From positions 1 through 52,423 of the IMG/VR virus record IMGVR_UViG_3300031957_002670: a stretch of DNA of 52,423 nt; one strand, written 5' to 3'. Origin of the DNA: a virus. Lineage: Duplodnaviria > Caudoviricetes. A model generated the notes under the pieces. That model was not told the origin of the DNA. It did not search any database and was given only the letters and a program-made list of their open reading frames with translations. Shown piece after piece: positions 8,884-51,927 of the stretch (its first letter is position 1; every line of letters starts with the position of its first letter). The translations under genes and the position numbers were made by a program.

Positions 8884-8919
8884 CTAATATACATAGTATT
8901 ATAATGTAGAAATATTTAG

Positions 8920-9573: not shown

Positions 9574-9598
9574 GTTTTACTTATATTATAAGTTTATC

Positions 9599-10318: not shown

Positions 10319-10320
10319 GC

Positions 10321-10500
10321 ATGATCCATATGGATCTAGAGAGTTATTTTAAATTAAACTTTGCGATGATGCAATACCACAAATACTCTCTCACTGAAAT
10401 TGAAAATATGATGCCCTTTGAAAGAGACATTTACGTTGCTCTCTTACAACAACATTTAGAGGAAGAAGAACAAAAACAAAAGGCAAGACAGAATGGCTAG
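10321..10500 (+). CDS. gp51: Short gp51-like baseplate hub assembly catalyst (59 aa), possibly made as a -1 frameshift fusion to gp26
   Basis: Read by hand: MIHMDLESYFKLNFAMMQYHKYSLTEIENMMPFERDIYVALL; no clear SD. Confidence 0.8.
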   Translation: MIHMDLESYFKLNFAMMQYHKYSLTEIENMMPFERDIYVALLQQHLEEEEQKQKARQNG

Positions 10501-13426
10501 AGATCCCAAAGTAACAAGAAAGGCTTATGAATATAAGTTAGGGAAGGATCTTGCCTCAAAATTGGATGATAAACAGATACATTTACTGTCAGAATACTAT
10601 AATTCTCTGAGTGATAAAGAGACGAGTGATATCGATAGTCAGATTGTTCAGGGAAGAAATAATACTGAACTACATGAAATGGCCATAGGTATGGTCGAAG
10701 AAAATGAAAGTAAAAAGACTCCACCAAAACCAAAAGCGAAACCAAAACCAAAGGCAACACCAAAGGCAAAGGCAAAACCAAAAAAGGTTTATGATGAGGA
10801 TAGATCAGTTGCATATAAGTTACCAGATCATATTCTCAAAGACCTTGACGAAGATCAGATAAAGGACTTATCTGCCGTATATAATATGATGTCGGCCGAT
10901 AAGAAAAAAGAATTTGCAAAGGGTAAGGGCGATTTGATGGATCTTGCCCGTCAGATGTCAGATCCATTACAAGAAAAATATAATACTGGAGGGTTAGATT
11001 CCTGGACTGGCAAACCCAAAGAAAATAGTAACGCAAAGCAGGGCCCAATGCCAATGCCCTCTGCTAAGAAAAAACCAGACAAGAAGGCTGTAACTGCCAT
11101 TGTCAAGAAGTTTAGTACAGAGAAGAAAGAAGATACTAAACAACCTGCTAATGAGACTATTGATCCAAAAGTATTAAGATTGTTGGGTTTAGAGGATACA
11201 TTTGACCTTGATTACGATACTTATAAGACTCTTCTTCGTGAGAAGATGGCTGCAGGCAGAATGTCTAAAAGTCAGATTCCAACTGAAGAGACTGAACTTC
11301 TCACTAATGAATTTAAGAGAGTAAAGAGTAAGACTGGTAGATTTAAACCAACTAAAAAGAAAGTTGTCAATATCTCCAAGGTAGTTCAAAGTGGTAGAAA
11401 ATATAACAAGTCTGCAGTTAACACTCAAAAACTTCTAAGTGGTTCTAAAGAAAGTGAATCAAATAAAATAGAGACGAAAGGTAAAGCAGTTACTGACTCT
11501 TTTGAAAATATCAATCAAACTCTGGTTGGTATTGATAGTCTTCTTGCTGATATACTAGGTGAAGAAAAGAAAGAGTCTGAACAAGAAGCAAAGACTGCAA
11601 GAAAGGCTGATCAAAAGGCAGAAGAAGAGAAGTCTGAAAAGAGTGCAAAGAAAGAGGCAACTAAGGCTCTAAAAGGATTCAAACCTCCAAAGATGGGTTT
11701 CCTTGATATGATCAAGAGATTCTTTGGAAATATCTTGGCTGGTGGTTTTGTATTAAAAATGCTTGACTGGATCCAAAACCCAGAAAATCAAAAGAAAATA
11801 CAGAATGTAGTTACATTTATTACGGACAATCTAGATAAAATTCTTATTGGTATTGCCGCAATAGTTGGAATTGGTATTGGTGGACAGATACTTGGTTTCT
11901 TAACATTGTTTACTCCTTTGGTAACTGGATTGTTTGGTGTACTTTCTGCAATGGCACCTATACTTGCACCTATTGTTGCTGCATTATTGCTTTGGAAGGG
12001 AGGTCAAGAAGGAGGAAAGGCACTTCAGGATCTCATTAACAGACAGAGAGGTGGTGGTCAAAAGGAAACAGAAGATGGAGTAAGGTATAGTGACAAATCA
12101 GTAGAAAGTCTTCGTCAAAATTTGAGTCTGTTATTACAACAAACAGATAAAAGAACAAATATTTTTGGACTTCCTGATTGGGCAAAACCATATAGTGAAG
12201 GTGAGAAAAGAGAATTTTTAGAAGACCAACTTGAAAAACTTAAGGAATTACAAAAGAGAATAAGAATTACCAAGTCTGTTAATGATGATTTGTATAGAAT
12301 CCAATTAAATTTGAAAAAAGGGAATGCAGAACTTGAACGATTAAGATCTTCCGGTGCTTCTGCAGACAAAATTGAAAGACAGGAAAAATTTGTCAAGGAC
12401 TTGGAAAAACAAGAAAAAACTTTTTCTATCAATAAAGAACAAAGTGTTAAAATAGAACAGAAACTAATTGGTGATATTGATTTTAATGAGTTACTTAAAG
12501 ATCCTAGAATCGCAAAGTTTATCCCAGATGAGATAAAAGACACTCTTAATAAAAGTGCCGATAATGTAAAAGTAACTCCAACATCCACACCACAGACACC
12601 AATGATGCCTTCTTCTGATGGTAGTGTGAAAAAAATTATTTTTGGTGCAGGTCATGCTGAGGATCCTAATCGACCGGGTAGTATGTTGGGTACAGATGGT
12701 AGACCTGTCCAAGGTACTGCAGATGACGGTTCTTCAGGTCTTAATACTCCAGCTAATGCAACTGGTGTGACAGAATCACAACTTTCGAGATTTGTTGTAG
12801 ACAACCTGAAAAAAGAAGTGGAGGCAAGGGGACTAACTGATAAGATTGGTTTCAGAGACATTTATAGTTGGGATGGGTTGAGAAAAGTACCCCAAGAAGT
12901 TGAGAGTACTGAAGGACATCAATATGTTGATATTCACGCTGATGCAAGAGGATTTGGTAAGGCAGGTGTTTTGCCATCGGCAAATGAATCCGCTACTGAT
13001 CGTTCTTTGATGAAAGAGTTTGGTAGGTATAGTGAAAGTTTTAAACCTTCCTCAAAAGGTGTTACTGCTGGTGGTGGCACTCTTCTTGAGATTGGTGCAA
13101 TCGATGACCCAAAACTTCGTAGTCTCTTGCTGGAAGCGAAGAGTGGTAATGCGGGACCGGCAACTCAAGAGATGATAAACAAAATTTTGAGGGGAGTTCT
13201 TCCCAGTGTTGGGCCAAAAATTGAACCAGTACAAAAACAAGAACCACCAAGACCACCTGGTAATCAGGCTTCTGCGACATTGCCGGTAGGTGGTGAAGGT
13301 GCTGGTGGTGATGAAATTGCAAGTGCAAGTGGTGGTCGAGCTGCCGCAGCATCATTCTCATCAACAGATAGGAATAACTCATCTCCACAATTGACCAGTT
13401 CAATTTTTAACCTTATGGCGGTATAG
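10493..13426 (+). CDS. Tape-measure-like virion protein with hydrophobic helices and a C-terminal Amidase_3-like Zn amidase domain
   Basis: Charged helical body, hydrophobic stretch ILIGIAAIVG...AALLLW; IIFGAGH / GVTE / VDIHAD / TLLEIG give the H-E-H-E amidase residues. Confidence 0.65.
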   Translation: MARDPKVTRKAYEYKLGKDLASKLDDKQIHLLSEYYNSLSDKETSDIDSQIVQGRNNTELHEMAIGMVEENESKKTPPKPKAKPKPKATPKAKAKPKKVYDEDRSVAYKLPDHILKDLDEDQIKDLSAVYNMMSADKKKEFAKGKGDLMDLARQMSDPLQEKYNTGGLDSWTGKPKENSNAKQGPMPMPSAKKKPDKKAVTAIVKKFSTEKKEDTKQPANETIDPKVLRLLGLEDTFDLDYDTYKTLLREKMAAGRMSKSQIPTEETELLTNEFKRVKSKTGRFKPTKKKVVNISKVVQSGRKYNKSAVNTQKLLSGSKESESNKIETKGKAVTDSFENINQTLVGIDSLLADILGEEKKESEQEAKTARKADQKAEEEKSEKSAKKEATKALKGFKPPKMGFLDMIKRFFGNILAGGFVLKMLDWIQNPENQKKIQNVVTFITDNLDKILIGIAAIVGIGIGGQILGFLTLFTPLVTGLFGVLSAMAPILAPIVAALLLWKGGQEGGKALQDLINRQRGGGQKETEDGVRYSDKSVESLRQNLSLLLQQTDKRTNIFGLPDWAKPYSEGEKREFLEDQLEKLKELQKRIRITKSVNDDLYRIQLNLKKGNAELERLRSSGASADKIERQEKFVKDLEKQEKTFSINKEQSVKIEQKLIGDIDFNELLKDPRIAKFIPDEIKDTLNKSADNVKVTPTSTPQTPMMPSSDGSVKKIIFGAGHAEDPNRPGSMLGTDGRPVQGTADDGSSGLNTPANATGVTESQLSRFVVDNLKKEVEARGLTDKIGFRDIYSWDGLRKVPQEVESTEGHQYVDIHADARGFGKAGVLPSANESATDRSLMKEFGRYSESFKPSSKGVTAGGGTLLEIGAIDDPKLRSLLLEAKSGNAGPATQEMINKILRGVLPSVGPKIEPVQKQEPPRPPGNQASATLPVGGEGAGGDEIASASGGRAAAASFSSTDRNNSSPQLTSSIFNLMAV

Positions 13427-35521: not shown

Positions 35522-38500
35522 ATGACAAAGTACACCAGTAAAGATTTTAAGGACCTTAAAGTAGGTATATCTTCTTTTAGTGATGGTAAAACTTCACTGG
35601 AGGTAATTGGTCGTATTGGAGTCAATACATCTACCTCAGAGAATGCAGTAGATGTAGTAGGTTCGGTTAATATTTCAGAAGATTTATATGTATCTGGAGT
35701 CTCTACATTCGTTGGTGTAGGAACTTTTGGAAGTGACTTATATGTTGGTGGAGATTTATATGTAAAAGATGATGTAGTATTTGATGAAATTGTAGCTAAA
35801 GATCTTAATATTACTGGTGTTGCTACAGTTGGTACGGCATTCACTGTCAATGGTCCTTCTAATTTAGTTGATACCTTTGTATCTGGTGCTCTTACTGCAA
35901 CCACATTTACTGGTGCTGGTACTGGACTGACAGGTATTACGAGTGCAACGAACGCAACTAATATCTACGGCGGAGCGACAGGTCAGTTATTATATCAGGC
36001 ACAACCAGGTATTACTTCAGCATTTGAGAGTGGAAGCACCAATCTTATTCTCGCATCAAGAGGACCAAATAATCCTCCACAATGGGTAGCTTCTGCACCC
36101 GCGGGAGCTGTTGAGGGTATTCTTATATTTGATGAAGGTGGCCAAGTAGGTTTAGGAACCACTTATTCTGGTCTAGACTTTAGAGGACTAGATGTTACTG
36201 TCACTGGTGGAAATAATGGTGGTATTGCAACAATTACTGTTTCACAACAGACTTATGTTGAGCAAGCTGGTGTATCGACCAGTGTAGTCGGTGGTGCAGC
36301 ATCAGTCACACAATTGAGTGTTAATAATACTGGTATTTCTACTTTAGGTGTTGTTGAAATCAATGCCGGTATCATAACCGCTACTGCTGGTGCTGCCGTC
36401 ACTGTTTATGGCGACCTAATTGGTACTGCTTCCACAGCATCATTTGCGACCACAGCATCATTTGCGACCACAGCATTTAACTTAGCCTCTCCTGGAGGTA
36501 TAAGTGTCGGATTTGCCACTATTGCAACGAATGTAATCGGTGGTATTGCTTCTGTTACTTCCTTAAGTGTTAATAATACTGGTATTTCTACTTTAGGTGT
36601 TGTTGAAATCAATGCCGGTATCATCACTAATACATTTGCTGGTGCTGCCGTCACTGTCTATGGTAATCTGATTGGTACTGCCTCAACAGCATCATTTGCG
36701 ACCACAGCATTTAACTTAGCCTCTCCTGGAGGTATAAGTGTCGGATTTTCCACTACTGCAACGAATGTAATCGGTGGTATTGCTTCTGTCACACAACTAA
36801 ATGTTGATGTAGGTATCTCATCCTTTGCCGACTTTAAGATTACCTCATCAGGAGTAGGTGCAACTGTTGGTGCATCTGTTGGTATTACGACATACTATGG
36901 TCGTGGTACTGAACTTACCGGTATTGTAACAACTATTACTGCTGGTCCATATATAACAATTGACCAATCGATTGGTAATGTTACAATCACCGGTATTGCC
37001 AATACTGCAAATGTTTTAACAGACTCAATAGTTGTTAGTGGTATTACGACACTCAATACGGTAAGTGCAAACTCACTTATTGTCTCTGGTATTACAACTT
37101 TAGGTGTTGTTACAGGTGCAACTTATTATGGGAATGGTAATAACCTAACGGGTATTGTTACCTCTCTTATTGCTGGAGCTAATATTTCTCTAAGTGGTTC
37201 TCAAGGTGAGGTCACAATTACTGGTCTTGCCTACACGGCAAATGTTGTAGCAGAATCATTAGTTGTTACTGGTGTTTCAACACTAGGTTTCATCACTGGT
37301 GCTGAATCAATCGGTGTTACTACAATATACACCGAGAACATTGTTGGTGGGACTGCTACATTCAGTGGTAATGTCACCATCGGTGGAACACTGACATATG
37401 AAGATGTATCAAGTGTAGATACTGTTGGTTTTGTAACTGCCAGAAGTGGATTAAATGTTGGTTACTCCACTGGACCATCTGGAATTGGTGCTACTATTCT
37501 TCCTGATGGTAATGCCACATTTGCTGGTACGGTAACAGCAACATCATTTGCTGGTATTAGTTCATTTGCAAAAGAACTTAGACAAGACGCAGACGGAAAT
37601 ATATTTGCCGGTGATGCAACGACTGGTGGTGGGTATGATCCTTCAACAGGATCTGCCTGCTTTAACATCTTTATGGGATGTAATGCTGGTAATAGTATTA
37701 CTGATGGATGTTATAATAACTTCTTAGGTAATAGTGCAGGAAGATGCAACACCACTGGAGGTTTTAATAACTTCTTTGGTGCTAATGCAGGACTCTCCAA
37801 CACCACTGGAGGTTTTAATAACTTCTTAGGTTCTAATGCAGGATCCTCCAACACCACTGGAAATTATAATAACTTCTTAGGTTCTAATGCAGGATACAAC
37901 AACACCACTGGAAAAAAAAATAACTTCTTAGGTCAGGATGCAGGAAGACGCAACACCACTGGAAATAATAATAACTTCTTAGGTTCTAATGCAGGATACA
38001 ACAACACCACTGGAACTCATAATAACTTCTTAGGTGCTAATGCAGGACTCTCCAACACCACTGGAACTTTTAATAACTTCTTTGGTTGTAATGCAGGACT
38101 CTCCAACACCACTGGAAGTGATAATAACTTCTTAGGTCGTAATGCAGGAAGATGCAACACCACTGGATGTTTTAATAACTTCTTTGGTTGTAATGCAGGA
38201 TGCTCCAACACCACTGGAACTGGTAATAACTTTATTGGTCAGGATGCAGGAAGATCAAACATCACTGGGACTTGTAATGTTGCTATAGGTCAGGGTGCGG
38301 GATATGGAAATACTACCGGAACTCAGAATATTTTCCTTGGATTTAGATCGGGATTTGCAGCAGGAGGATCTGGATCTTATAATTTCTTTGCGGGTGAATA
38401 TGCAGGACAATTCAACACCACTGGAGGTTGTAATGTCTTCATTGGTCGTCGCACAGGAAGATGCAACACCACTGGAGGTAGTAATTTCTTCGTTGGTTAT

Positions 38501-41500
38501 CTTGCAGGATTCTCCAACACCACTGGAACTTCTAATAACTTCATTGGTCGTGAAGCAGGAGGAAACAACACCACTGGAAGTAATAATAACATCATTGGGG
38601 AAGCTTCAGGAAGATTCAACACCACAGGAAGTGGTAATAACTTCTTTGGTCAATGTGCAGGAAGATATAACATTTCTGGGAATTGTAACAATTTCATTGG
38701 TTGGGGTGCAGGATTCTCCAACACCACTGGAGGTTTTAATAACTTCTTTGGTTCTAATGCAGGACTCTCCAACACCACTGGATCCTGTAACAATATGATC
38801 GGTCGTGGTGCCGGTCAATGTGCAACGGTCACTGGACAACATAATAACTTCTTAGGAACTTATGCCGGTAAGTGTGCTTCTGGTTCTGGAACTCATAATA
38901 ACTTCATGGGTTTTTGTGCAGGAACCTTCAACACCACTGGAGGTTCTAATAACTTCTTAGGTTTTAGTGCAGGAAGATTCAACACCACTGGAACTTCTAA
39001 TAACTTCTTAGGTAATTATGCAGGAAGATCCAACACCACTGGAAATTATAATAACTTCTTAGGTCAATTTGCAGGAAGATACAACACCACTGGAAATAAT
39101 AACAACTTCTTAGGTAATTATACAGGATTCTCCAACACCACTGGAAATAATAATAACTTCTTTGGTTCTAGTGCAGGAAAATGCAACACCACTGGAGGTT
39201 CTAATAACTTCTTTGGTCCTAGTGCAGGAAGATGCAACACCACTGGATCTTGTAATAACTTCTTAGGTCGTAATGCAGGATACGCTAACACCACTGGAAG
39301 TTGTAATAACTTCTTAGGTGCTAGTGCAGGATCCTGCAACACCACTGGAAATAATAATAACTTCTTTGGTTATCTTGCAGGATTCTCCAACACCACTGGA
39401 TCCTGTAACAATATGATCGGTCGTGGTGCCGGTCAATGTGCAACGGTCACTGGACAACATAATAACTTCTTAGGAACTTATGCCGGTAAGTGTGCTTCTG
39501 GTTCTGGAACTCATAATAACTTCATGGGTTTTTGTGCAGGAACCTTCAACACCACTGGAGGTTCTAATAACTTCTTAGGTTTTAGTGCAGGAAGATTCAA
39601 CACCACTGGAACTTCTAATAACTTCTTAGGTAATTATGCAGGAAGATCCAACACCACTGGAAATTATAATAACTTCTTAGGTCAATTTGCAGGAAGATAC
39701 AACACCACTGGAAATAATAACAACTTCTTAGGTAATTATACAGGATTCTCCAACACCACTGGAAATAATAATAACTTCTTTGGTTCTAGTGCAGGAAAAT
39801 GCAACACCACTGGAGGTTCTAATAACTTCTTTGGTCCTAGTGCAGGAAGATGCAACACCACTGGATCTTGTAATAACTTCTTAGGTCGTAATGCAGGATA
39901 CGCTAACACCACTGGAAGTTGTAATAACTTCTTAGGTGCTAGTGCAGGATCCTGCAACACCACTGGAAATAATAATAACTTCTTTGGTTATCTTGCAGGA
40001 TTCTCCAACACCACTGGATCCTGTAACAATATGATCGGTCGTGGTGCCGGTCAATGCGCAACGGTCACTGGACAACATAATAACTTCTTAGGAACTTATG
40101 CCGGTAAGTGTGCTTCTGGTTCTGGAGGTTATAATAACTTCTTTGGTCTGAGTGCAGGATTCTGCAACACCACTGGAGGTTCTAATAACTTCTTAGGTGT
40201 TCAGGCAGGATACTGCAACACCACTGGATGTTTTAATAACTTCTTAGGTAATGGAACAGGAATCTCCAACACCACTGGATCCTGTAACAATATGATCGGT
40301 CGTGGTGCCGGTCAATGCGCAACGGTCACTGGACAACATAATAACTTCTTAGGAACTTATGCTGGTAAGTGTGCTTCTGGTTCTGGAAATAATAATAACT
40401 TCTTTGGTTCTAATGCAGGACTCCTCAACACCACTGGAAGTTTTAATAACTTCTTAGGTCGTAGTGCAGGATACTTAAACACCACTGGAGGTTGTAATAA
40501 CTTCTTAGGTCATTATGCAGGACGAAACAACACCACTGGAGGTTATAATAACTTCTTTGGTTTTAATGCAGGACTCTGCAACACCACTGCATGTCATAAT
40601 AACTTCTTAGGTAGTTGTGCAGGACTCTCCAACACCACTGGAAGTTTTAATAACTTCTTAGGTAATAGTGCAGGACGAAACAACACCACTGGAGGTTATA
40701 ATAACTTCTTTGGTCAATTTGCAGGATGCTCCAACACCATTGGAAGAAAAAATAACTTCTTAGGTCATGATGCAGGAAGATTGAACACCACTGGATGTTT
40801 TAATAACTTCTTAGGTGCTTATGCAGGAAGATCCAACACCACTGGAAGTGATAATAACTTCTTAGGTCGTAATGCAGGAAGATCCAACACCACTGGAAGT
40901 GAGAATATTTTCCTCGGTAATGGTGCAGGATACTGCAACACCACTGGATGTAGAAATATTATAATGATGCGTGGTGCAGGTTCCTGCAACACCACTGGAT
41001 CTCATAATCACTTCTTTGGTAATTATGCAGGAAAATTGAACACCACTGGATCTTATAATAACTTCTTAGGTCTTAATGCAGGATTCTCCAACACCACTGG
41101 ATCTTATAATAACTTCTTAGGTCGTTATGCAGGAAGATGCAACACCACTGGAACTGATAATAACTTCTTAGGTCATGGAACAGGACTCTCCAACACCACT
41201 GGATCCTGTAACAATATGATTGGTCTTGGTGCCGGTAAATGCGCAACGGTCACTGGACAACATAATACCTTCTTAGGAACTTATGCCGGTAAGTGTGCTT
41301 CTGGTTCTGGAGGTTATAATAACTTCATGGGTTTTTGTGCAGGAACCTTCAACACCACTGGAAATTATAATAACTTCTTAGGTCTGAGTGCAGGAACCTT
41401 CAACACCACTGGAAATTATAATAACTTCTTTGGTAATAGTGCAGGATGCTCCAACACCACTGGAGGTTTTAATAACTTCTTAGGTAATATTGCAGGAAGA

Positions 41501-43282
41501 TACAACACCACTGGAGGTTCTAATAACTTCTTAGGTCAGAATGCAGGACTCTGCAACACCACTGGAAGTTTTAATAACTTCTTAGGTACTAATGTAGGAT
41601 GCTACAACACCACTGGAGGTTCTAATAACTTCTTAGGTTCTAGTGCAGGAAGATACAACACCACTGGAAATTATAATAACTTCTTAGGTCTTGATGCAGG
41701 AAGATCCAACACTAGTGGATCCTGTAACAATATGATTGGTCTTGGTGCCGGTAAATGCGCAACGGTCACTGGACAACATAATACCTTCTTAGGAACTTAT
41801 GCCGGTAAGTGTGCTTCTGGTTCTGGAAATAATAATAACTTCTTTGGTCTGAGTGCAGGATTCAATAACACCACTGGAACTTCTAATAACTTCTTAGGTG
41901 ATTATGCAGGATACAACAACACCACTGGAGGTACTAATAACTTCTTAGGTAATGCAGCAGGATTCTCCAACACCACTGGAACTCGTAATAACTTCTTAGG
42001 TCAGGGTGCAGGAAGATGCAACACCACTGGAAGTTCTAATAACTTCTTAGGTTGTGGTGCAGGATTCTCCAACACCACTGGAAGTTTTAATAACTTCTTA
42101 GGTGCTTATGCAGGATGCTACAACACCACTGGAGGTTCTAATAACTTCTTAGGTAATGGTGCAGGAAGATGCAACACCACTGGAACTCGTAATAACTTCT
42201 TAGGTGCTTATGCAGGACTCTCCAACACCACTGGATCCTGTAACAATATGATTGGTGTTGGTGCCGGTCAATGCGCAACGGTCACTGGACAACATAATAC
42301 CTTCTTAGGAACTTATGCTGGTAAGTGTGCTTCTGGTTCTGGAAATAATAATAACTTCTTAGGTTTTAGTGCAGGATACTGCAACACCACTGGAACTTCT
42401 AATAACTTCTTTGGTTTTTATGCAGGAAAATTCAACACCACTGGATGTTTTAATACTTTCATTGGACGTGAAGCAGGATGCTCTAATACTACTGGAAGTC
42501 ATAATGTCCATATAGGATGTCAGGCAGGCCAAAATGCCGACGCAGATTATAATATTTTTATTGGTCGTTATTCGGGCAGAAATTCGACTGGAGGTTGTAA
42601 TAACTTCTTAGGTCTTAATGCAGGATTCTCCAACACCACTGGAACTCATAATAACTTCTTAGGTCAATGTACAGGATACTGCAACACCACTGGAGGTTAT
42701 AATAACTTCTTAGGTCGTGATGCAGGAAGATCCAACACCACTGGAACTCATAATAACTTCTTAGGTTATCAGGCAGGATGCAATAATACAGCAGGTAGTA
42801 ATAACCTTGCATTTGGTCAAAATGCCGGTCAAACAACAGGCACTCCATCAGGACTGATTAATCTGACGACAAGTAGCAATTGTATTGTTATGGGTAATGC
42901 AAATCATTCATGTGCCGCAATACAAGTAGCATGGACAGTTATTTCTGATATTAGAGATAAGTGTGTTTATGGTGATGTACCTCATGGAAGAGGATTCTTA
43001 CAGAATATTAATCCTATCAAATATTCATTCAAGAATAGAGAAACGAATGAGGTTACTGATGAAAGAGTCAGATATGGATTCAGTGCTCAAGAGGTTGCAG
43101 AACTTGAAGGTGATGAAACAATCATTGCATCAAAATCTAACATAGATAAGTGGGGTGTCACTCATGAGCACTTACTTCCTGTTCTTGTAAATGCAATCAA
43201 AGAACTTGATGTCGAAAACCAAGAACTCAAAGAAAGATTATCTTCACTGGAAGAAAAAGTTAATTCTCTACTGAATAATTGA
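35522..43282 (+). CDS. Giant tail fibre (2586 aa) with ~100 17-aa beta-solenoid repeats and C-terminal S74-type intramolecular chaperone
   Basis: GITT shaft; NTTGxxNNFxGxxAGxx array; SDIRDK...YGFSAQEV...VLVNAIKEL coiled-coil end from 42944. Confidence 0.85.
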   Translation: MTKYTSKDFKDLKVGISSFSDGKTSLEVIGRIGVNTSTSENAVDVVGSVNISEDLYVSGVSTFVGVGTFGSDLYVGGDLYVKDDVVFDEIVAKDLNITGVATVGTAFTVNGPSNLVDTFVSGALTATTFTGAGTGLTGITSATNATNIYGGATGQLLYQAQPGITSAFESGSTNLILASRGPNNPPQWVASAPAGAVEGILIFDEGGQVGLGTTYSGLDFRGLDVTVTGGNNGGIATITVSQQTYVEQAGVSTSVVGGAASVTQLSVNNTGISTLGVVEINAGIITATAGAAVTVYGDLIGTASTASFATTASFATTAFNLASPGGISVGFATIATNVIGGIASVTSLSVNNTGISTLGVVEINAGIITNTFAGAAVTVYGNLIGTASTASFATTAFNLASPGGISVGFSTTATNVIGGIASVTQLNVDVGISSFADFKITSSGVGATVGASVGITTYYGRGTELTGIVTTITAGPYITIDQSIGNVTITGIANTANVLTDSIVVSGITTLNTVSANSLIVSGITTLGVVTGATYYGNGNNLTGIVTSLIAGANISLSGSQGEVTITGLAYTANVVAESLVVTGVSTLGFITGAESIGVTTIYTENIVGGTATFSGNVTIGGTLTYEDVSSVDTVGFVTARSGLNVGYSTGPSGIGATILPDGNATFAGTVTATSFAGISSFAKELRQDADGNIFAGDATTGGGYDPSTGSACFNIFMGCNAGNSITDGCYNNFLGNSAGRCNTTGGFNNFFGANAGLSNTTGGFNNFLGSNAGSSNTTGNYNNFLGSNAGYNNTTGKKNNFLGQDAGRRNTTGNNNNFLGSNAGYNNTTGTHNNFLGANAGLSNTTGTFNNFFGCNAGLSNTTGSDNNFLGRNAGRCNTTGCFNNFFGCNAGCSNTTGTGNNFIGQDAGRSNITGTCNVAIGQGAGYGNTTGTQNIFLGFRSGFAAGGSGSYNFFAGEYAGQFNTTGGCNVFIGRRTGRCNTTGGSNFFVGYLAGFSNTTGTSNNFIGREAGGNNTTGSNNNIIGEASGRFNTTGSGNNFFGQCAGRYNISGNCNNFIGWGAGFSNTTGGFNNFFGSNAGLSNTTGSCNNMIGRGAGQCATVTGQHNNFLGTYAGKCASGSGTHNNFMGFCAGTFNTTGGSNNFLGFSAGRFNTTGTSNNFLGNYAGRSNTTGNYNNFLGQFAGRYNTTGNNNNFLGNYTGFSNTTGNNNNFFGSSAGKCNTTGGSNNFFGPSAGRCNTTGSCNNFLGRNAGYANTTGSCNNFLGASAGSCNTTGNNNNFFGYLAGFSNTTGSCNNMIGRGAGQCATVTGQHNNFLGTYAGKCASGSGTHNNFMGFCAGTFNTTGGSNNFLGFSAGRFNTTGTSNNFLGNYAGRSNTTGNYNNFLGQFAGRYNTTGNNNNFLGNYTGFSNTTGNNNNFFGSSAGKCNTTGGSNNFFGPSAGRCNTTGSCNNFLGRNAGYANTTGSCNNFLGASAGSCNTTGNNNNFFGYLAGFSNTTGSCNNMIGRGAGQCATVTGQHNNFLGTYAGKCASGSGGYNNFFGLSAGFCNTTGGSNNFLGVQAGYCNTTGCFNNFLGNGTGISNTTGSCNNMIGRGAGQCATVTGQHNNFLGTYAGKCASGSGNNNNFFGSNAGLLNTTGSFNNFLGRSAGYLNTTGGCNNFLGHYAGRNNTTGGYNNFFGFNAGLCNTTACHNNFLGSCAGLSNTTGSFNNFLGNSAGRNNTTGGYNNFFGQFAGCSNTIGRKNNFLGHDAGRLNTTGCFNNFLGAYAGRSNTTGSDNNFLGRNAGRSNTTGSENIFLGNGAGYCNTTGCRNIIMMRGAGSCNTTGSHNHFFGNYAGKLNTTGSYNNFLGLNAGFSNTTGSYNNFLGRYAGRCNTTGTDNNFLGHGTGLSNTTGSCNNMIGLGAGKCATVTGQHNTFLGTYAGKCASGSGGYNNFMGFCAGTFNTTGNYNNFLGLSAGTFNTTGNYNNFFGNSAGCSNTTGGFNNFLGNIAGRYNTTGGSNNFLGQNAGLCNTTGSFNNFLGTNVGCYNTTGGSNNFLGSSAGRYNTTGNYNNFLGLDAGRSNTSGSCNNMIGLGAGKCATVTGQHNTFLGTYAGKCASGSGNNNNFFGLSAGFNNTTGTSNNFLGDYAGYNNTTGGTNNFLGNAAGFSNTTGTRNNFLGQGAGRCNTTGSSNNFLGCGAGFSNTTGSFNNFLGAYAGCYNTTGGSNNFLGNGAGRCNTTGTRNNFLGAYAGLSNTTGSCNNMIGVGAGQCATVTGQHNTFLGTYAGKCASGSGNNNNFLGFSAGYCNTTGTSNNFFGFYAGKFNTTGCFNTFIGREAGCSNTTGSHNVHIGCQAGQNADADYNIFIGRYSGRNSTGGCNNFLGLNAGFSNTTGTHNNFLGQCTGYCNTTGGYNNFLGRDAGRSNTTGTHNNFLGYQAGCNNTAGSNNLAFGQNAGQTTGTPSGLINLTTSSNCIVMGNANHSCAAIQVAWTVISDIRDKCVYGDVPHGRGFLQNINPIKYSFKNRETNEVTDERVRYGFSAQEVAELEGDETIIASKSNIDKWGVTHEHLLPVLVNAIKELDVENQELKERLSSLEEKVNSLLNN
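36317..36789 (+). repeat. Near-identical internal duplication (offset 249 bp) with a nested 18-bp tandem
   Basis: agtgttaataatactggtatttctactttagg... at 36317 and 36566; acagcatcatttgcgacc is doubled only in copy 1. Confidence 0.85.
37697..42832 (+). repeat. Coding tandem array of ~100 x 51 bp
   Basis: AACACCACTGGA-N6-AATAACTTCTTWGGT-N6-GCAGGA-N6; units counted by hand from the translation. Confidence 0.95.
38766..40056 (+). repeat. 618-bp tandem duplication, apparently exact
   Basis: 206-aa block repeated identically; identical antisense ORFs at 39118 and 39736 (offset 618); first mismatch seen at 40057. Confidence 0.9.
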
Positions 43283-43322: not shown

Positions 43323-44222
43323 ATGAATAAAACTTTTTACTTTATGGCAGGACTCCCCAGATCGGGGAGTACTTTGCTTTCATCAATTCTAAATCAGAAT
43401 CCAAGATTTTATTCTGGACCATCAAGTCCAGTTCTTGGTGCAATGTTTGCCGTAGAGCAAGACTTTATGGGTAATGAGTTGTATCATGGATATCCAAAAC
43501 CAGATCAAGTCAGAGAGATCATTGGTAGCATTCCACATCATTTTTATAGTGATGTTCAACAACCAGTTGTCTTTGATAAAAATCGTGCATGGACTGCAAG
43601 AGTTCCTTATATTGAAGGATACATTGGAGAACAGGCAAAGATTCTTGTTCCAGTTCGTAGAATAGATGAGATTCTAACTTCTATTCTGACAATGATTCAT
43701 CGAAATCCTTTTCAGGAAGGACAACCAAGAATTAATTTTATAGATGAACAATTAATCAAAACTGATATTCCTATTAATGATTTGAATAGATGTATGTATC
43801 TTCTTGGTGGAGGTGGTATTGTTTATGAGTCACTGAATGCGATTATGATGGGATTCCAACAAAATGTGCGTGACAAAATGCATTTTGTGGACTATAATGA
43901 TCTTGTAGATAATCCCGAAAAAATAATGGAAGACATCTATGATTTTATTGGGGAAGAGTTTTATGATCATGACTTTGGATCAATCTCAAATATTCATAGG
44001 GAAGATGATTTGATAACTTATGGACTAAGTGATATGCATCAGGTTCGTTCTAAGGTCAAGAAAACTTCTCCTCCACCAGCATCAATTCTCCCTGAAGAAA
44101 TTATCGATATTTATGAACAAAACAAAAGAAGACTTGAATTTTGGGGAACACCTGATATTGTTACGGTAACCCCTAAGGTAAAGGCACCACTTACAAAGGA
44201 TAATAATATTATCTTTAAATAA
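43323..44222 (+). CDS. Sulfotransferase-family protein
   Basis: PAPS-binding loop GLPRSGSTLL; DKNRAW; VRRIDEILTS; YNDLVDNP. Confidence 0.85.
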   Translation: MNKTFYFMAGLPRSGSTLLSSILNQNPRFYSGPSSPVLGAMFAVEQDFMGNELYHGYPKPDQVREIIGSIPHHFYSDVQQPVVFDKNRAWTARVPYIEGYIGEQAKILVPVRRIDEILTSILTMIHRNPFQEGQPRINFIDEQLIKTDIPINDLNRCMYLLGGGGIVYESLNAIMMGFQQNVRDKMHFVDYNDLVDNPEKIMEDIYDFIGEEFYDHDFGSISNIHREDDLITYGLSDMHQVRSKVKKTSPPPASILPEEIIDIYEQNKRRLEFWGTPDIVTVTPKVKAPLTKDNNIIFK

Positions 44223-44247: not shown

Positions 44248-44586
44248 ATGGCAATTACACATACAAGAACAATTGAAAATCTTGAAGTCAGAAATGATGG
44301 AAACAATATAGTTTGTAATATTCAAGTTAAATGGGTATCCTCTGATGATTCTGATGTAGAAAGAACTACAATTGAAGGTTCTGAAACTTATCAAGTTAAT
44401 TCTGAAGATGTTACTCCAGATTCTGAAGGATTTGTTGCATTTGCAGACTTGACTGAAGAGATTGTATTGGGATGGATTGCAGATGAACTTGCAAATTCAA
44501 ATACAACTCAAAATAATGCTTCATGGATTGACTCTGTTCTTAATCCCCCAGCACCTGCTACAGTAAACAAAGAAACTCCTTGGTAA
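44248..44586 (+). CDS. Fibre-associated hypothetical protein
   Basis: FVAFADLTEEIVLGWI...TPW pattern, which I associate with small proteins next to phage fibres. Confidence 0.7.
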   Translation: MAITHTRTIENLEVRNDGNNIVCNIQVKWVSSDDSDVERTTIEGSETYQVNSEDVTPDSEGFVAFADLTEEIVLGWIADELANSNTTQNNASWIDSVLNPPAPATVNKETPW

Positions 44587-44590: not shown

Positions 44591-45490
44591 ATGGCAAAAC
44601 TTAAGTATTCTATATTTCATGTTCAAGGTGGGTTTGGTAAACATATTGCAGCAACAGCAGTAGCTAAATGTATTAAAAATAATCATCCAGGTAGACAACT
44701 TATTGTTGTTTCTGTCTGGTCTGAAATATTTCAAAATCTTCCATTTGTAGATAGAGTATATCAACTTGGTAATACAAGTTATTTTTACCAAAGTTATATT
44801 GAAAATGAGGACTCAATAATTTTTCATAATGAACCTTATTTCACTACTGATCATATTCATAAAAAACTGCCTCTGATTCAAACTTGGTCTAAGATGTATG
44901 GATTAGAATATCGTGGTGAAATGCCAGATATTAAATTCAATCCTTTACAGAAAAAGATTGCAAAAGAATTTTGGGCAAGTCGTGCAAACGAAAAACCGAT
45001 TATGGTTCTTCAAACTAATGGTGGAATGTATAATGAACAGAGACCATATCTATGGGCAAGAGATATGCCTGTGGCACTTGCACAAAAACTTGTAGATCAT
45101 TATTCTGATAAGTATCATATTTTTCAAGTCAAAAAACCTTCTTCTGAAGCATTGGATGGTGTGGAAGTGGTTCAAGATCCAATGAGTAATATGGAACTTG
45201 TAAGTATCTTACTGAATAGTGAGAAGAGAATACTTATTGATAGTTGCCTACAACACGCAGCAACAGCATTGAAATTACCTTCTGTGGTATTATGGAATGG
45301 AACTAGTCCAAAGGTCTTTGGATGGGATATACATACCAATATTCAAGCAGAGAAACCTGCCAACTTTAAACTTCCAAATAGTTATTTGTTTGACTTTGAT
45401 TTTACTGGAGTAGAAGCAGAGTATCCTTATGTGGATGAGGATGAAGAAATCTTTAACTTTGATAAAATTATAGAAGCAGTTGATAAATGA
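44591..45490 (+). CDS. GT9-like (heptosyltransferase-type, GT-B) glycosyltransferase
   Basis: GGFGKHIAATAVAKCIKNNHPGRQLIV and IDSCLQHAATALKLPSVVLWNGTSP parallel the GT9 GxGD...P and DSGxxHLAxAxxxPxVxLFGPTxP motifs. Confidence 0.7.
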   Translation: MAKLKYSIFHVQGGFGKHIAATAVAKCIKNNHPGRQLIVVSVWSEIFQNLPFVDRVYQLGNTSYFYQSYIENEDSIIFHNEPYFTTDHIHKKLPLIQTWSKMYGLEYRGEMPDIKFNPLQKKIAKEFWASRANEKPIMVLQTNGGMYNEQRPYLWARDMPVALAQKLVDHYSDKYHIFQVKKPSSEALDGVEVVQDPMSNMELVSILLNSEKRILIDSCLQHAATALKLPSVVLWNGTSPKVFGWDIHTNIQAEKPANFKLPNSYLFDFDFTGVEAEYPYVDEDEEIFNFDKIIEAVDK

Positions 45491-47169
45491 ATGTTATTGG
45501 ACTTTATGGTGCGATTGGATGGAACGTTTTAATTTCTGATAATCCTCGTTTGAGAGAACAAATGAATGAAAGTTGGACACATGGAGCAAGTGTGTCTTTA
45601 TTTTCTAATGGAAATCATGTAACTAGTATCAGTGAAGAAAGACTTACTGGTATTAAATATGATGGAAACTTTCCACGAAAATCGATAGACTATTGTTTAT
45701 CGACAGGAAATCTTTCCAAAGAAGATATTGATGTAGTTGTCGTTCCATCGATGGCAAATACAAACTTCTATAAGAATTATATTAATCAAACTCTTCAATC
45801 TAAAGTTAAAAGATATTTTCCAAAAGCAAAAGTTGAGATAGTATCACATCATATGTGTCATGCATATTCATCAGTGTTCTCTTCAGATTACAATGAAGGA
45901 ACATTTATTACGATGGATAATGCTGGATCTATTTTATTCAATTCTACTGGCAATGCTTTTTCTACAGAGAATCATTCTATAGGATACTTTAATAAAGAAA
46001 AAGGTATTTTTAGGTATCATCCCGGTATTCCTGAAATGAATAACTTTGGAAATTATTATTGGGCTTGGGCATATCAAATTTATGTTGAGATGGTTCAGAA
46101 ACAAATTGATATTACTGATCCAAAGTATCGTGAGACATTCTGTGGCAAGGTCATGGGTCTTTCGGCATATGGTAATATAAAGGAGTTTGAAAAAGATTAT
46201 CGACAAACTTTCGAAGGTATCCCTTCAGTTACATTCAATTCTTTTCCTGGACAGGACTATGTTTATGGGAACATGAGTCCAGAGAACAAAGCAAGAACTC
46301 TTCAACATAATTTTGAGCAGGGAATGCTTGTTTATATGAAGACACTCAAAGAGCAAGGATATATTGATGACAATCTTTGCCTTGCTGGTGGTGTGTTTCT
46401 GAATATTCTCACAAACTCTGTCATTCGTAAGAATGAAATTGTAAAGAATATGCACATCCCACCATTTCCTGACGATACTGGATTATCATTTGGTGCTGCA
46501 TGTTATGGTGTTTTTAAGACAAAAGAAAAAGTAACTCTCCCACATAATATTTCACTTCTTGGACGCACTTATAGTGACGAAGAGATTGAGAAAGCACTTG
46601 AAGGGAAAAACTATAAGAAGTTTGATAACTTTGAAGAACTGTGTGAGAAGGTTGCTAAACTTCTTGCTGATAATAAAATTGTTGGATGGTTTCAAAATCG
46701 TTCAGAGTTTGGACCTAGAGCACTTGGTTCTCGTTCAATTCTGATGAACCCATCATTAAAAGAAAATAAAAAGACAATCAATACTCGTATTAAACATAGA
46801 GAAGAGTGGCGTCCATTTGCGGGCATTATGCTTGAAGAATATCAAGAAGAATACTTTATAGATGTATATCCAAATGAATATATGCTATACTCTCTGGTAG
46901 TAAAACCACATCAAAGAAAGAAACTTGGTGCGATCACACATAAAGATTTCTCATGTAGAATTCAAACTGTAAATGAAAAATTGCATCCAGAAGTTACAAC
47001 ACTTCTTCAAAAATATAACAAAGAAACTGATTGTCCGGTTCTTTTAAATACTTCTTTCAATGATAATGGTCAACCAATTGTAGAGAATCCAAAAGATGCT
47101 ATTAAAACTTTTGAAAGTATTGATCTAGATTGTCTTGTAATTGGAAATTATTTTTTAATCGGAAGTTAA
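45487..47169 (+). CDS. O-carbamoyltransferase (NodU/CmcH/TobZ family)
   Basis: SEERL, HHMCHAYS, GKVMGLSAYG, LAGGVFLN, EFGPRALGSRSIL, KHREEWRPFA, LNTSFN. Confidence 0.93.
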   Translation: MNVIGLYGAIGWNVLISDNPRLREQMNESWTHGASVSLFSNGNHVTSISEERLTGIKYDGNFPRKSIDYCLSTGNLSKEDIDVVVVPSMANTNFYKNYINQTLQSKVKRYFPKAKVEIVSHHMCHAYSSVFSSDYNEGTFITMDNAGSILFNSTGNAFSTENHSIGYFNKEKGIFRYHPGIPEMNNFGNYYWAWAYQIYVEMVQKQIDITDPKYRETFCGKVMGLSAYGNIKEFEKDYRQTFEGIPSVTFNSFPGQDYVYGNMSPENKARTLQHNFEQGMLVYMKTLKEQGYIDDNLCLAGGVFLNILTNSVIRKNEIVKNMHIPPFPDDTGLSFGAACYGVFKTKEKVTLPHNISLLGRTYSDEEIEKALEGKNYKKFDNFEELCEKVAKLLADNKIVGWFQNRSEFGPRALGSRSILMNPSLKENKKTINTRIKHREEWRPFAGIMLEEYQEEYFIDVYPNEYMLYSLVVKPHQRKKLGAITHKDFSCRIQTVNEKLHPEVTTLLQKYNKETDCPVLLNTSFNDNGQPIVENPKDAIKTFESIDLDCLVIGNYFLIGS

Positions 47170-50587: not shown

Positions 50588-51239
50588 AGCTTTACTATTA
50601 AGTCTGATGATGTTTGGTACATTACCAGCAATTGCACAACCAGAAGTTGAACCATTTTCATACGATTCAATGGGTTGTATGTTACTGGAAGAGTGCACTG
50701 AAGGTGTAGAACCAGTTTGGGGTATTGATTATCTTGTACAACAATATCCTGACTCTGATTGGAACCCAGTTGCAGAAGAGTTCAGTCGTATTTTGAATGC
50801 ATTGACTCTTATTGATGTTCAAGTATATCTTGCGGATGAAAAATATTTTCCTGTCGGACACCGTGGTGTATATCATACAGTAGGAAATAATTTCTTCTTG
50901 AACCGAGCATTTATGCATCGTCCTAGTACTCTTATGTCTGTGATGAGACATGAAGGTTGGCATGCAGCCCAGGATTGTATGGCTGGAACGATTGATAATT
51001 CCATGATTGCTATTATCAAACCAGAGGAAGATGTTCCTATGTTGTGGCAAGAAATGGTAGAACGTACTTATCCAGTATCGGCACAACCATGGGAGAAAGA
51101 GGCAACTTGGGCAGGTAAAACTGAAGGTATGACTCAACTAGCACTTGAATCCTGTGCTCGTGGTACAATGTGGACCGATTATTCTCCCACGCCTATGACA
51201 AGGGAATGGTTGGTTGAGAATGGTTATATCAAAAATTGA
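50577..51239 (+). CDS. Signal-peptide-bearing HExxH metalloprotease-like protein
   Basis: MKIKALLLSLMMFGTLPAIA signal-like N-terminus; RHEGWHAAQDC; EKEA. Confidence 0.75.
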   Translation: MKIKALLLSLMMFGTLPAIAQPEVEPFSYDSMGCMLLEECTEGVEPVWGIDYLVQQYPDSDWNPVAEEFSRILNALTLIDVQVYLADEKYFPVGHRGVYHTVGNNFFLNRAFMHRPSTLMSVMRHEGWHAAQDCMAGTIDNSMIAIIKPEEDVPMLWQEMVERTYPVSAQPWEKEATWAGKTEGMTQLALESCARGTMWTDYSPTPMTREWLVENGYIKN

Positions 51240-51927
51240 TCCTAATATTATTGGTCGGTTTTGTGAGAATGAATTCCTCAATTCCGACGCATTAATAACT
51301 ATTCATAATTGGATAAGAAATCAAGAGTGGGAAGATGGAATAAAATCTTTACATTGGCTTGGTGATAGAAATCTACATGACCTGAAAAGAAATCAAGGAA
51401 CAAAAAAAGAACTTCCTGGTTATATTTTCTGGCCTCATGTAGATAACAATCAAAGATTTACTAGGTTTACAGAACCAAAACAGAGTTCATCTATACATTG
51501 TACAAGAACACCTACAGGTGGATATTATAAACCACATTTTGATGATTATAAGTTAGGACATTTTTCTACTACAATTTTTCTTAATGAACCTGATGAATAT
51601 GATGGTGGTGAGTTAGTATTATGGTTGGATGGTAAAGAACAATTTTTTAAACCAAAAGCAGGTCATGGTATAACATATGAGACTGGAATTGGTCATCGTG
51701 TTAATACTGTTACCAAAGGAGAACGATTAGCTATTGTTTTTTGGACAACATCTAGGTGGACTGATATTAATATGTTTAGAAAGTTCAAATATTATGATTA
51801 TATGACACAATATTCTTATGATGATAAAGTATATGACACATTAGATGGATATTGTAATAGTGCACAGACAGTAATTAGAAAACGAACAGAGAACATCCTC
51901 AATGGACAGTTTAGAGACTGTCCATAA
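51220..51927 (+). CDS. 2OG-Fe(II) oxygenase (PKHD/PiuC-like)
   Basis: YKPHFD, STTIFLNEPDEYDGGEL, HRVNTVTKGERLAIVFW. Confidence 0.88.
   Translation: MVISKIDPNIIGRFCENEFLNSDALITIHNWIRNQEWEDGIKSLHWLGDRNLHDLKRNQGTKKELPGYIFWPHVDNNQRFTRFTEPKQSSSIHCTRTPTGGYYKPHFDDYKLGHFSTTIFLNEPDEYDGGELVLWLDGKEQFFKPKAGHGITYETGIGHRVNTVTKGERLAIVFWTTSRWTDINMFRKFKYYDYMTQYSYDDKVYDTLDGYCNSAQTVIRKRTENILNGQFRDCP

Follow-up and report, generated by a model that had tools for sequence, protein, structure and literature searches.

How can a tandem repeat keep even its silent positions nearly fixed while some of its codons vary widely? The question is raised by a giant fibre-like gene in the IMG/VR virus record IMGVR_UViG_3300031957_002670, the whole of which (52,423 nt, CheckV completeness about 26%) was analysed and is called the window in the following. 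The gene (35522–43282, + strand) is a single open reading frame (ORF) of 2586 aa, adjoined by tail-fibre and baseplate genes. It contains the entire repeat array (37697–42784, + strand), in which about 100 units of 51 nt, or 17 aa, are built from the constant blocks AAC ACC ACT GGA, AAT AAC TTC TTW GGT and GCA GGA, followed respectively by the two-codon variable slots A, B and C. A previous examination of the DNA, made from its letters alone (the sequence-only reading), had proposed that the constant blocks serve as recombination handles which shuffle 6-nt cassettes under diversifying selection. The evidence presented below leads us to favour, with moderate confidence, an explanation of this general kind, in which exposed slot residues are under diversifying selection while the units recombine in register, undergo unequal crossing-over and pass from gene to gene and from phage to phage.

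Analysis with Tandem Repeats Finder reveals a single array (37705–42778, period 51, 98.7 copies). At the protein level the unit reads NTTG xx NNF[LF]G xx AG xx, and 'NTTG' is found 76 times, with a spacing of exactly 17 aa in 62 of the 75 intervals. From the array, 80 clean 17-aa units were extracted, 69 of them distinct as DNA, and all 51 columns were tabulated. The scaffold codons are nearly invariant, wobble positions included, as the sequence-only reading had noticed: among the 69 units the majority codon is kept by 67 (AAC), 65 (ACC), 65 (ACT) and 66 (GGA) in the first block, by 63 (AAT), 55 (AAC), 60 (TTC) and 64 (GGT) in the second, and by 56 (GCA) and 63 (GGA) in the third, with codon 10 split between TTA (40/69) and TTT (13/69). 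A perfect 33-nt scaffold is present in 38/71 units. The NNT NNT pattern described for slots A and B is equally borne out, since codons 5, 6, 12 and 13 end in T in 63, 64, 57 and 59 of the 69 units, as is the mostly NNC pattern of slot C with its AGA exception, codon 17 ending in C in 57/69 units and codon 16 ending in C in 36/69 and being AGA in 20/69. The per-column alignment that had been suggested as a check gives entropies of 1.4–1.9 bits at the first two positions of the slot codons, except for one of these 12 columns (0.87 bits, codon 17 position 1), against 0–0.6 bits at most scaffold columns. All four bases are present at slot positions 1 and 2, and the scaffold adenines are 97–100% conserved. 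Cysteine is indeed frequent in the slots: it accounts for 72 of the 1680 array residues (4.3%), every one of them in a slot position, compared with 0.7% in the window's other genes and 0/700 in the N-terminal part of the array protein. As to its limits, the array starts at 37697 as originally placed, but its canonical part stops at 42784 and not at 42832.

Codon preference does not account for this uniformity. The scaffold is composed largely of codons that are rare in the window's other genes, where ACC represents 12% of Thr, GGA 26% of Gly and TTC 34% of Phe codons, and AAC and TTA stand at 32% and 20%; among the codons typical of slot C, TGC represents 5% of Cys and TCC 6% of Ser codons there, and TAC stands at 21%. 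The choice is moreover specific to the position. The Gly codon is GGA at positions 4 and 15 of the unit and GGT at position 11, the first Thr is written ACC and the second ACT, and one and the same amino acid takes TGT, TAT, TTT, AAT or TCT in slots A and B but TGC, TAC, TTC, AAC or TCC in slot C. Rare codons chosen according to position rule out codon bias as the cause. The contrast between codon positions within the slots is equally clear. The minority base of the T/C pair at slot third positions, a change that is always silent, occurs in 13/349 cases (14/260 for the two-fold codons of the scaffold), whereas the pairwise diversity at slot positions 1 and 2 is 0.61–0.63. In the 45 core units with a perfect scaffold protein motif, the replacement divergence (pN) of the slots is 0.555 and the silent divergence (pS) of the scaffold 0.006, the comparison being made from pN, pS and site counts and not from a likelihood site model. 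If the slots were neutral or merely relaxed, the third base of their codons should have become random at the same pace as the other two; as this is not seen, replacement changes have been preferentially fixed. Neutral drift is ruled out by the same figures, and the asymmetry between codon positions points to selection on the protein. Finally, a simple duplication tree is rejected: one exact 618-nt duplicate aside, the slots of two units differ to the same extent (8.8 of 18 nt) whatever their lag along the array.

We further compared the window with other loci, designated by L-numbers, among which are close relatives of the array gene. One of these, L001, differs from the window at 14/2175 nt in the N-terminal part. 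Its array, which is cut by the contig end, has the window's scaffold unchanged, but nearly every slot is different, beginning with the first unit, and 8 units vs. 20 in the window precede the first of the punctuation modules described below. In L014, L052, L073 and L047 the gene is of the same family, and its C-terminal domain has 99% protein identity to that of the window; outside the array, L052 differs from L014 at 17/4200 sites, and L047 and L073 differ from it at 53 and 55 sites. In 22 orthologous units of L014 and L052, differences are found at 25/264 slot positions 1 and 2, 5/132 slot positions 3, 2/242 scaffold positions 3 and 1/484 scaffold positions 1 and 2, so that the excess of amino-acid over silent change, which the sequence-only reading had deduced from the array alone, is found again between orthologues. 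These 30 slot changes are confined to 13 of 66 slots (none of 20,000 random placements was as clustered) and form two patches, the first ahead of an internal linker and the second within the six units that precede the C-terminal domain; 10 of the 13 changed slots differ at 2–4 of their 6 bases. In the last units before the C-terminal domain, the same slots carry three alleles, represented by L014, L052/L073 and L047/L100. More generally, the differences between close relatives come in patches of 1–5 units, and L014, L052 and L073 also differ in which super-repeats they possess as a whole. One of the variants, GGTTGT AAT to TCCTGT AAC, joins a slot to an adjacent scaffold variant typical of the punctuation modules and looks like a short conversion tract. 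A duplicated 567-nt super-repeat within L014 is identical in its last four units (0/204) and diverged in its first four, where 11 differences fall on slot positions 1 and 2, 2 on slot position 3, 3 on scaffold position 3 and 1 on scaffold positions 1 and 2. Six of its eight changed slots differ by a single base. To judge from these sequences, it shows stepwise point mutation together with a sharp boundary like that left by conversion or crossing-over. Between L058 and L059, whose relation may be that of alleles or of paralogues, the 141 C-terminal codons show no silent change (0) and 1 replacement, but the adjacent three units have a slot pN of 20.8/44.

The scaffold is by no means restricted to this gene family. 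An exact search for AACACCACTGGA-NNT-NNT-AATAACTTCTT in IMG/VR yielded 89 stretches. Units with at most 5 mismatches in the 33 scaffold bases were recovered from 59 contigs besides the window, giving 789 distinct units in all, and none of these 59 contigs has an identical unit in common with the window. The pattern is also present in runs of 10 studies. In order to avoid circularity, units were also detected by the protein motif alone and their scaffold codons scored against the window consensus, for which the baseline expected from codon usage is about 0.39 (mean of the frequencies in other genes). The window codon is used in 353/372 cases in L042, 271/289 in L015, 87/100 in L044, 130/150 in L035 and 73/87 in L063, and in 82–84% of cases in L018 and L074. 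Decayed scaffolds, with 57–69% of consensus codons, are found in L051, L069, L049, L053 and L064. On the other hand, the C-terminal domain that directly follows the array has a pS of 0.56–0.74 relative to the window in L044, L042, L035 and L063, i.e. it is saturated at silent sites. With 84–95% of scaffold codons in common beside a saturated domain, the scaffold must be much younger than its carrier genes, or else be held uniform across them. Judged from these alignments, both cases require that units or arrays are transferred from gene to gene and from phage to phage. Such transfer accords with the array-free relatives of the N-terminal domain and with the tandem array genes of L042, both described below.

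These comparisons also bear on the proposal that the array was simply amplified of late from one founder, with relaxed constraint in the slots and with neither positive selection nor homogenisation. The perfect 618-nt tandem duplicate would mean that amplification is ongoing, and the continuum from frozen arrays (window, L042 and L015, 94–95%) to decayed ones (L051 and L069, 57–59%), in which slot third positions decay together with the scaffold, resembles ageing. Neutrality, however, predicts silent T/C changes to be as common as changes at positions 1 and 2, in conflict with the counts given above both within the array and between orthologous units, and a young array fails to explain scaffold codons held in common by otherwise saturated genes unless arrays move between phages; we regard this account as quite unlikely. 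Direct selection on the scaffold nucleotides has to be weighed against the same data. Fixed rare codons might pace co-translational folding, or some RNA or DNA feature might be needed, the slots being the positions left free. In its favour, the scaffold codons are rare in the genome, position-specific and conserved across diverged genes, and an unrelated virus of archaea is also frozen, in a codon dialect of its own. This virus, L106 (Caudoviricetes sp. vir515, host given as Methanosarcinales), encodes a virion protein (2306–3577) with ten 17-aa units NTTGxxNSFFGxxAGYx, which has its own GC-rich frozen scaffold (ACG ACG GGC ... AAC TCG TTC TTC GGG) and variable slots; that an archaeal virus has a scaffold of its own means that the DNA pattern arose more than once. 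In roseophage CRP-1, which served as a control, the same protein repeat has fully scrambled silent sites, and this, together with the arrays that have decayed to 57–69%, indicates that the codons are not required for the fold. Selection on nucleotides leaves unexplained both the frozen third base of the slots, T or C depending on slot and lineage, and the excess of replacement changes. It is in our opinion highly unlikely.

The patchiness of the differences, the gain and loss of blocks and the identity of the scaffold across diverged genes lead us instead to in-register homologous recombination. For the earlier proposal that constant blocks act as recombination handles, this means support in part, by the patches of 1–5 units, the super-repeats gained or lost, the half of a duplicate that is identical over 204 nt and the scaffold codons held in common across saturated genes. 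The shuffling of individual 6-nt cassettes is another matter: no donor was found for the variant junctions among the loci compared, and the weak linkage between slots is equally expected from saturation. In its core, with replacement well above silent change, recombination handles and no DGR, the sequence-only reading is largely confirmed.

A more active mechanism would be programmed and targeted diversification, in which a diversity-generating retroelement (DGR) or another recombination or repair system recognising the scaffold rewrites the 6-nt slots at a high rate, as an active generator of libraries. DGRs of the Bordetella phage Mtd type comprise a reverse transcriptase and a template repeat and make adenine-specific changes in one C-terminal variable repeat; they use AAY codons, which cannot be turned into stops. 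The likeness to DGR targets is evident, both being phage proteins of the receptor-binding type in which variation is limited to codons that cannot mutate to stop, since by the genetic code NNY codons do not become stop codons by changes at positions 1 and 2. The clustering of the changes between near-identical phages, with 10 of 13 differing slots altered at several bases, and the conservation of scaffold nucleotides across phages with saturated flanks, as for a cis-acting handle, also speak for such a system. Nevertheless, none of the DGR components is seen here. The reverse transcriptase domain RVT_1 (PF00078) is matched neither in the 52-kb record nor in 5 larger related ones (76–160 kb), all of them incomplete (26–75%); there is no adenine specificity, the scaffold adenines being invariant and all four bases occurring at slot positions 1 and 2; and no copy of a unit or template exists outside the ORF within the window. 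A DGR is thus excluded as far as these incomplete records go, in line with the sequence-only reading, which had already set it aside. Other observations argue against programmed rewriting of any kind. Clonal contigs of different metagenomes have identical arrays (0/3039), and the same array allele recurs unchanged in another study, where 30/30 array pieces among the Logan contigs of run X6 are at least 99% alike to the window, including 38173–38474 and 39839–40034; arrays are therefore heritable and stable in the short term and are not rewritten in each generation. It is difficult to conceive of mutation by a process that would leave each third base alone, and the slot-equivalent positions of the seven punctuation modules are mostly invariant. 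We consider that programmed diversification has little chance of being the right explanation.

A related idea keeps recombination as the agent and gives the scaffold a function at the DNA level. The frozen scaffold of rare codons would be maintained as the cis-acting handle of a virus-borne diversification system without retroelement, in which T4-type recombination or a dedicated factor reassorts and patch-converts slot cassettes among about 100 units, paralogous fibre genes and co-infecting phages otherwise too diverged to recombine, so that a guild of aquatic T4-like phages would share a circulating library of 51-nt units. If true, this would be a viral analogue, at the level of populations, of the assembly of variable lymphocyte receptors (VLR) in lampreys or of bacterial antigenic-variation cassettes. 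We regard it as a tentative extension and, on present evidence, as rather unlikely.

As the data are short-read assemblies, we also asked whether the array, or its mosaicism between contigs, might result from mis-assembly of mixed strains. Contigs often end within arrays (L001, L019, L052, L057), in four runs the Logan contigs cover the array in separate pieces of 150–350 nt, with many false joints in X7, and a perfect 618-nt tandem duplicate is unusual in this type of assembly. The uncovered parts of the array in X5 and X6 and the many joints in X7 carry no evidential weight. Against an artefact, the statistics per unit need only 51 nt, less than one read, and are independent of the order of the units; the pattern recurs in the 59 other contigs and the runs of 10 studies; 109 of 111 pieces from the Logan contigs of run X1 match the window at ≥99%; the ORF is open across 7.7 kb; and the same 3-kb array appears in five independent assemblies. 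An artefactual origin is therefore most improbable.

To obtain insight into where the slots lie in the protein, nine units (aa 1137–1289) were modelled with AlphaFold2 from an alignment of 42 in-register paralogous segments drawn from the window and 11 loci. The model has a predicted local distance difference test score (pLDDT) of 95.7 and a predicted template modelling score (pTM) of 0.89, with strands recurring every 17 residues, and the array is predicted to fold as a β-solenoid with one unit per coil. Residues outside the strands are mainly those at unit positions 11–16 (G x x A G x), and a break at positions 4–5 (G x) is visible in 3 of the 9 coils. In the model every slot directly follows a glycine, at or beside a turn and mostly outside the strands. 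Structural comparison with VIA-align retrieved the upper tail protein of phage Andhra (8egr_A; Z 12.9, root-mean-square deviation (rmsd) 2.3 Å, 153 aligned residues), Ag43 (7koh; Z 11.2, rmsd 2.9 Å) and HMW1 (2odl; Z 11.1, rmsd 2.3 Å), besides FHA (1rwr) and a bacterial antifreeze protein, Z-scores of 11–13 being common among repeat folds and indicating the fold class only. The predicted single-chain solenoid rod is thus similar in structure to β-helical adhesins and phage tail proteins (rmsd 2.3–2.9 Å over 142–153 residues), but it has no sequence relationship with them. Foldseek searches with the repeat model and with a model of the C-terminal domain gave nothing at E ≤ 0.001, a profile of the repeat sequence had 0 matches in the PDB, the ESM Atlas returned only clusters without names, and the 17-residue coil with its three G-x-x corners corresponds to no Pfam family (only PF13884 was found at E ≤ 0.01). 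A β-solenoid rises by about 4.8 Å per coil, from which the model would give a rod roughly 48 nm long for 100 coils. The slots would face outward from this solenoid, and on this model they may form the combinatorial binding surface that had been suggested from the sequence.

Taken together, these data are compatible with the following mechanism. In a T4-like aquatic myovirus, the array would form the shaft of a giant fibre or adhesin. One 17-residue coil would be encoded by each 51-nt unit, its core and turns made up of the constant residues (N, T, T, G / N, N, F, L, G / A, G) and its three two-residue slots placed on the outside. Two processes would then act on it. In the first, selection fixes point mutations at the first two positions of slot codons far faster than silent changes accumulate, so that the third base would retain the letter of the founder unit, T in slots A and B and C in slot C. 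The second would be homologous recombination, for which the identical scaffold provides in-register homology. It would comprise unequal crossing-over, by which units and multi-unit blocks are gained or lost, conversion-like patches, and the passage of units from one paralogous fibre gene to another and from phage to phage during co-infection. Recombination would thereby keep the scaffold uniform, as in concerted evolution, and reassort blocks of slots into new alleles, while the many near-identical units would offer a high supply of mutations. The role of the slots would be receptor binding, with variation of the host surface as the selective agent.

Arrays of this kind are known elsewhere. 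In the zinc-finger minisatellites of PRDM9 and in the repeats of transcription activator-like effectors (TALE), near-identical units differ at two or three contact codons and evolve by unequal recombination and positive selection. The TALE layout, a variable diresidue in a constant repeat, is a close match, with three diresidues per unit in the phage array. Unlike these arrays, which have 10–30 units and read DNA, one base or triplet each, the phage array probably has a cell-surface structure as its ligand. A second parallel is provided by the het-d/het-e WD40 family of Podospora, which has near-identical tandem repeats of variable number that undergo concerted evolution within and between genes; in each repeat, positive diversifying selection acts at a small number of codons of the interaction surface, and repeats are reshuffled to new specificities (Paoletti, Saupe and Clave 2007, PMC1805685). 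Hypermutation by repeat-induced point mutation (RIP) is proposed there as an extra source of mutations for the repeats of fungal NOD-like receptors (NLR) (PMC1805685). The features in common are units uniform in their DNA, silent sites included, a few hypervariable codons, and exchange within and between genes; by this analogy the phage array appears to evolve in the manner of fungal NLR repeats. It differs in that the fungal proteins are intracellular receptors of a eukaryote with a β-propeller fold, whereas we are dealing with a phage virion fibre and a predicted β-solenoid, in which six of the 17 residues of a unit vary, one gene holds about 100 units, and different phages apparently exchange them. 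Closer to home, the T-even adhesins have glycine-rich motifs and hypervariable segments in gp38 and conserved motifs in gp37, exchanges in or near the motifs giving chimeric adhesins (Trojet et al. 2011, PMC3157838, with citation of Tetart et al. 1996 and 1998). Both cases concern T4-type phages and conserved glycine-containing motifs that flank hypervariable segments for host recognition. However, gp38 is a small monomeric tip protein with four hypervariable segments and not, like the present array, a tandem of about 100 units; it has no sequence similarity to the array protein, and its conservation is described mainly at the level of protein and motif rather than as frozen silent sites. By analogy, evolution of the kind proposed here would have precedents in eukaryotic receptor and DNA-binding arrays and, in its broad features, in T-even adhesins. 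No account of the 17-aa repeat or of phage-fibre arrays with a frozen scaffold was found in the open-access literature and bioRxiv.

Several points weigh against the explanation by selection and recombination. Positive selection on some 600 residues along a rod of about 48 nm is much to ask of receptor binding alone, and the array model is that of a monomer. Between L048 and L022 there are 12/5967 differences outside the array and 0/768 inside, and five contigs, each of a different metagenome, agree fully in the array (0/3039) as well as in its flanks; the array does not change measurably faster than its flanks in every lineage. The comparison was made on contigs and not on reads, Logan contigs cannot show minority variants, and the mosaicism seen between contigs could be overstated, since short-read assemblies of arrays may be chimeric. 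A search of the 103 IMG/VR loci and the window yielded no donor unit for any variant slot junction, so that conversion between units is inferred from patchiness and not observed; the new slot hexamers distinguishing L014 from L052 belong to the array's own vocabulary in 9 of 13 cases against a baseline of 34/53, which is not discriminating. Linkage between slots, whose test had been proposed along with the sequence-only reading, is nearly absent, with 69 distinct triples in 70 units and mutual information barely above that of shuffles (z 2.1–3.6). This result is uninformative, as nearly unlinked slots and the absence of a distance effect along the array fit free reassortment and saturation equally. 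Pairs of units that share two of three slots are more numerous than expected (46/66/58 observed vs. 14/38/32 by chance), the third slot mostly differing at several bases, but about half of such pairs are coincidental and the test is weak.

The significance of the array lies in the role of tail fibres, which decide which cells can be infected, and in the question of how marine phages track the diversity of host surfaces. The division into framework and variable positions is very clean, with about 600 variable residues on a rod of about 100 coils, and the DNA framework is common to many T4-like phages of different waters, even where the neighbouring domain has lost all similarity at silent sites. 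If our explanation by selection and recombination is right, phages use the same device as fungal immune receptors, PRDM9 and TALE effectors, which the open-access literature searched does not report for phage fibres. As the units are only 51 nt long, slot repertoires could then be read from short-read metagenomes and the natural diversification of a fibre measured directly, and the coil would be a natural scaffold with three designable diresidues per turn, useful for the engineering of binders.

Not all of the array is regular. About 20 units are irregular; they comprise a stretch of degenerate units at 38207–38720 (+ strand), where spacings of 34 and 35 aa occur and the scaffold is partly decayed, and seven 'punctuation' modules. 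The first of these (38783–38896, + strand) is a conserved, Cys-bearing segment of sequence SCNNMIG[RLV]GAG[QK]CATVTGQHN[NT]FLGTYAGKCASGSG; the six others start at 39401, 40019, 40280, 41204, 41720 and 42236 on the same strand. Copies differ at 0–8 of 114 nt, each is 36–38 aa long with 3 or 4 Cys, and they occur every 5–18 units and shift the register by two residues. The modules may be disulfide-stabilised joints or assembly marks of the rod. One module and 9 units form the 618-nt block mentioned above, which is present twice in tandem (38771–40006, + strand; 38771–39388 and 39389–40006 with 0 differences), the identity of the duplicate extending 50 nt into the following block. Since such a perfect duplicate comes from a short-read assembly, the order of the units is to be taken with some caution.

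Concerning the genomic context, the gene content of the window is that of a T4-like myovirus structural region, with PHROG matches that include a baseplate hub, a tail tube cap and several tail fibres, and its gp48-like protein is 37–46% identical to proteins of Prochlorococcus and Synechococcus myophages. On these grounds the array gene can be placed in the host-recognition gene cluster of a T4-like (Kyanoviridae-like) myovirus, a context also seen beside other array loci. Its 2586-aa product matches phrog_23837 (1.6e-101), phrog_6002 (9.9e-68) and phrog_4636 (tail spike, 3.1e-64), i.e. families of virion structural proteins and the C-terminus of a tail-spike family. Searches with megablast gave no match for the start of the gene among GenBank phages, and tblastn with the whole protein found only distant relatives, each covering <80% of it. 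Four parts can be distinguished in the protein: an N-terminal part, an 'initiator' segment, the roughly 100 17-aa units and a C-terminal domain. The N-terminal fibre domain (35522–37582, + strand; aa 1 to about 687–690) is without Cys. Over aa 1–675 it is 63–72% identical (tblastn) to proteins of the Synechococcus phages S-B05, RB11-B and RN05-S, and it is 50–70% identical to its IMG/VR relatives L002–L013. Units are absent from all 12 of these loci, 5 of which (L004, L006, L008, L011, L013) hold at least 7 kb downstream; the domain appears from this also to occur in fibre genes that have no array. An internal duplication of about 250 nt lies at 36406–36800 (aa ~300–420), with blastn self-matches of 36314–36555 and 36563–36789 at 86.5% through L001, and the short 18-nt repeat ASFATTASFATTA is found in the same domain (Tandem Repeats Finder, 36432–36476). 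A Logan contig of run X5 jumps 206 nt here, from 36458 to 36665, which suggests variants in the copy number of the duplicated segment.

The initiator segment (QDADGNIFAGD...CFNIFMGCNAGNS; 37583–37696, + strand) directly precedes the array. In the L014 homologue a near copy of it restarts the array, and FEQDADGNLIAGG...CFNIFMGCNAGNSITEGDY sits between two array segments. At about 16600–16900 of L014 (...NTTGSNQLAIGVIANTWINGDSSFNVGFGTT...FEQDADGNLIAGG...CFNIFMGCNAGNS) a non-repeat linker breaks the array and is followed by the second initiator copy; similar linkers, of the form 'QLAIG...W[IV]NG[DN]S..NVGIGT', recur in the Kyanoviridae fibre of L105. Arrays seem, from such arrangements, to be assembled from restartable modules. 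A different organization is found in L042, where five consecutive ORFs (5478–12717, − strand; 702, 392, 321, 289 and 605 aa) are each made up of the same 51-nt units, as a tandem family of short array fibres of which at least three end in an S74-like C-terminal domain of their own. In the L042 lineage, T ends all six slot codons.

At the distal side, a last degenerate coil and a linker (42785–42943, + strand) lead to the cleavage motif and, should the chaperone be removed, are likely to form the distal tip of the mature fibre. The C-terminal domain (42944–43282, + strand; about 110 aa) has an SDIRDK motif and a C-terminal coiled coil. Its match to Pfam PF13884 (Peptidase_S74; aa 2475–2527, E = 5.1e-4) reaches 20.7 bits, below the cut-off of 22 bits, and phrog_4636 is matched at profile positions 608–760 of 763. 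The monomer model is poor (pLDDT 67.9), and the Foldseek rows are weak (MyRF ICA 7dc3, E 0.13; 3gw6, E 0.57). Chaperones of the endosialidase type have a catalytic dyad of Ser and Lys five residues apart, and the Ser, Arg and Lys of SDxRxK are invariant in 17/17 homologous C-termini. The domain is probably a self-cleaving intramolecular chaperone of this type (Peptidase_S74-like), its SDxRxK domain resembling that of self-cleaving tail spikes and fibres such as 3gw6. The fibre would form a trimer from which the C-terminal domain cleaves itself.

Downstream of the array gene lies a cassette of four genes on the + strand, encoding a sulfotransferase-like protein of about 300 aa (43323–44222; PF13469, 1.1e-13, phrog_27463), a DUF7936 protein (44248–44586; PF25590), a 299-aa protein of phrog_8954 (44591–45490) and a carbamoyltransferase of 560 aa (45487–47169; PF16861, 1.4e-63). 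The same cassette is found beside other array genes, in L014 (17499–21345), L016, L035, L044, L049, L053 and L063. Each coil of the array contains N-T-T, an N-x-T sequon, and the slots are rich in Tyr, Ser and Thr. From these gene assignments, sulfation, carbamoylation or glycosylation may take place on the rod itself or on the surface of the host. Genes for 2-oxoglutarate (2OG)-Fe(II) oxygenases are located near the fibre cluster in the window (51214–51927; PF13640, 9.8e-13) and in L053 (1448–2062; phrog_61), and by their family membership they could be auxiliary metabolic genes or encode protein-modifying enzymes.

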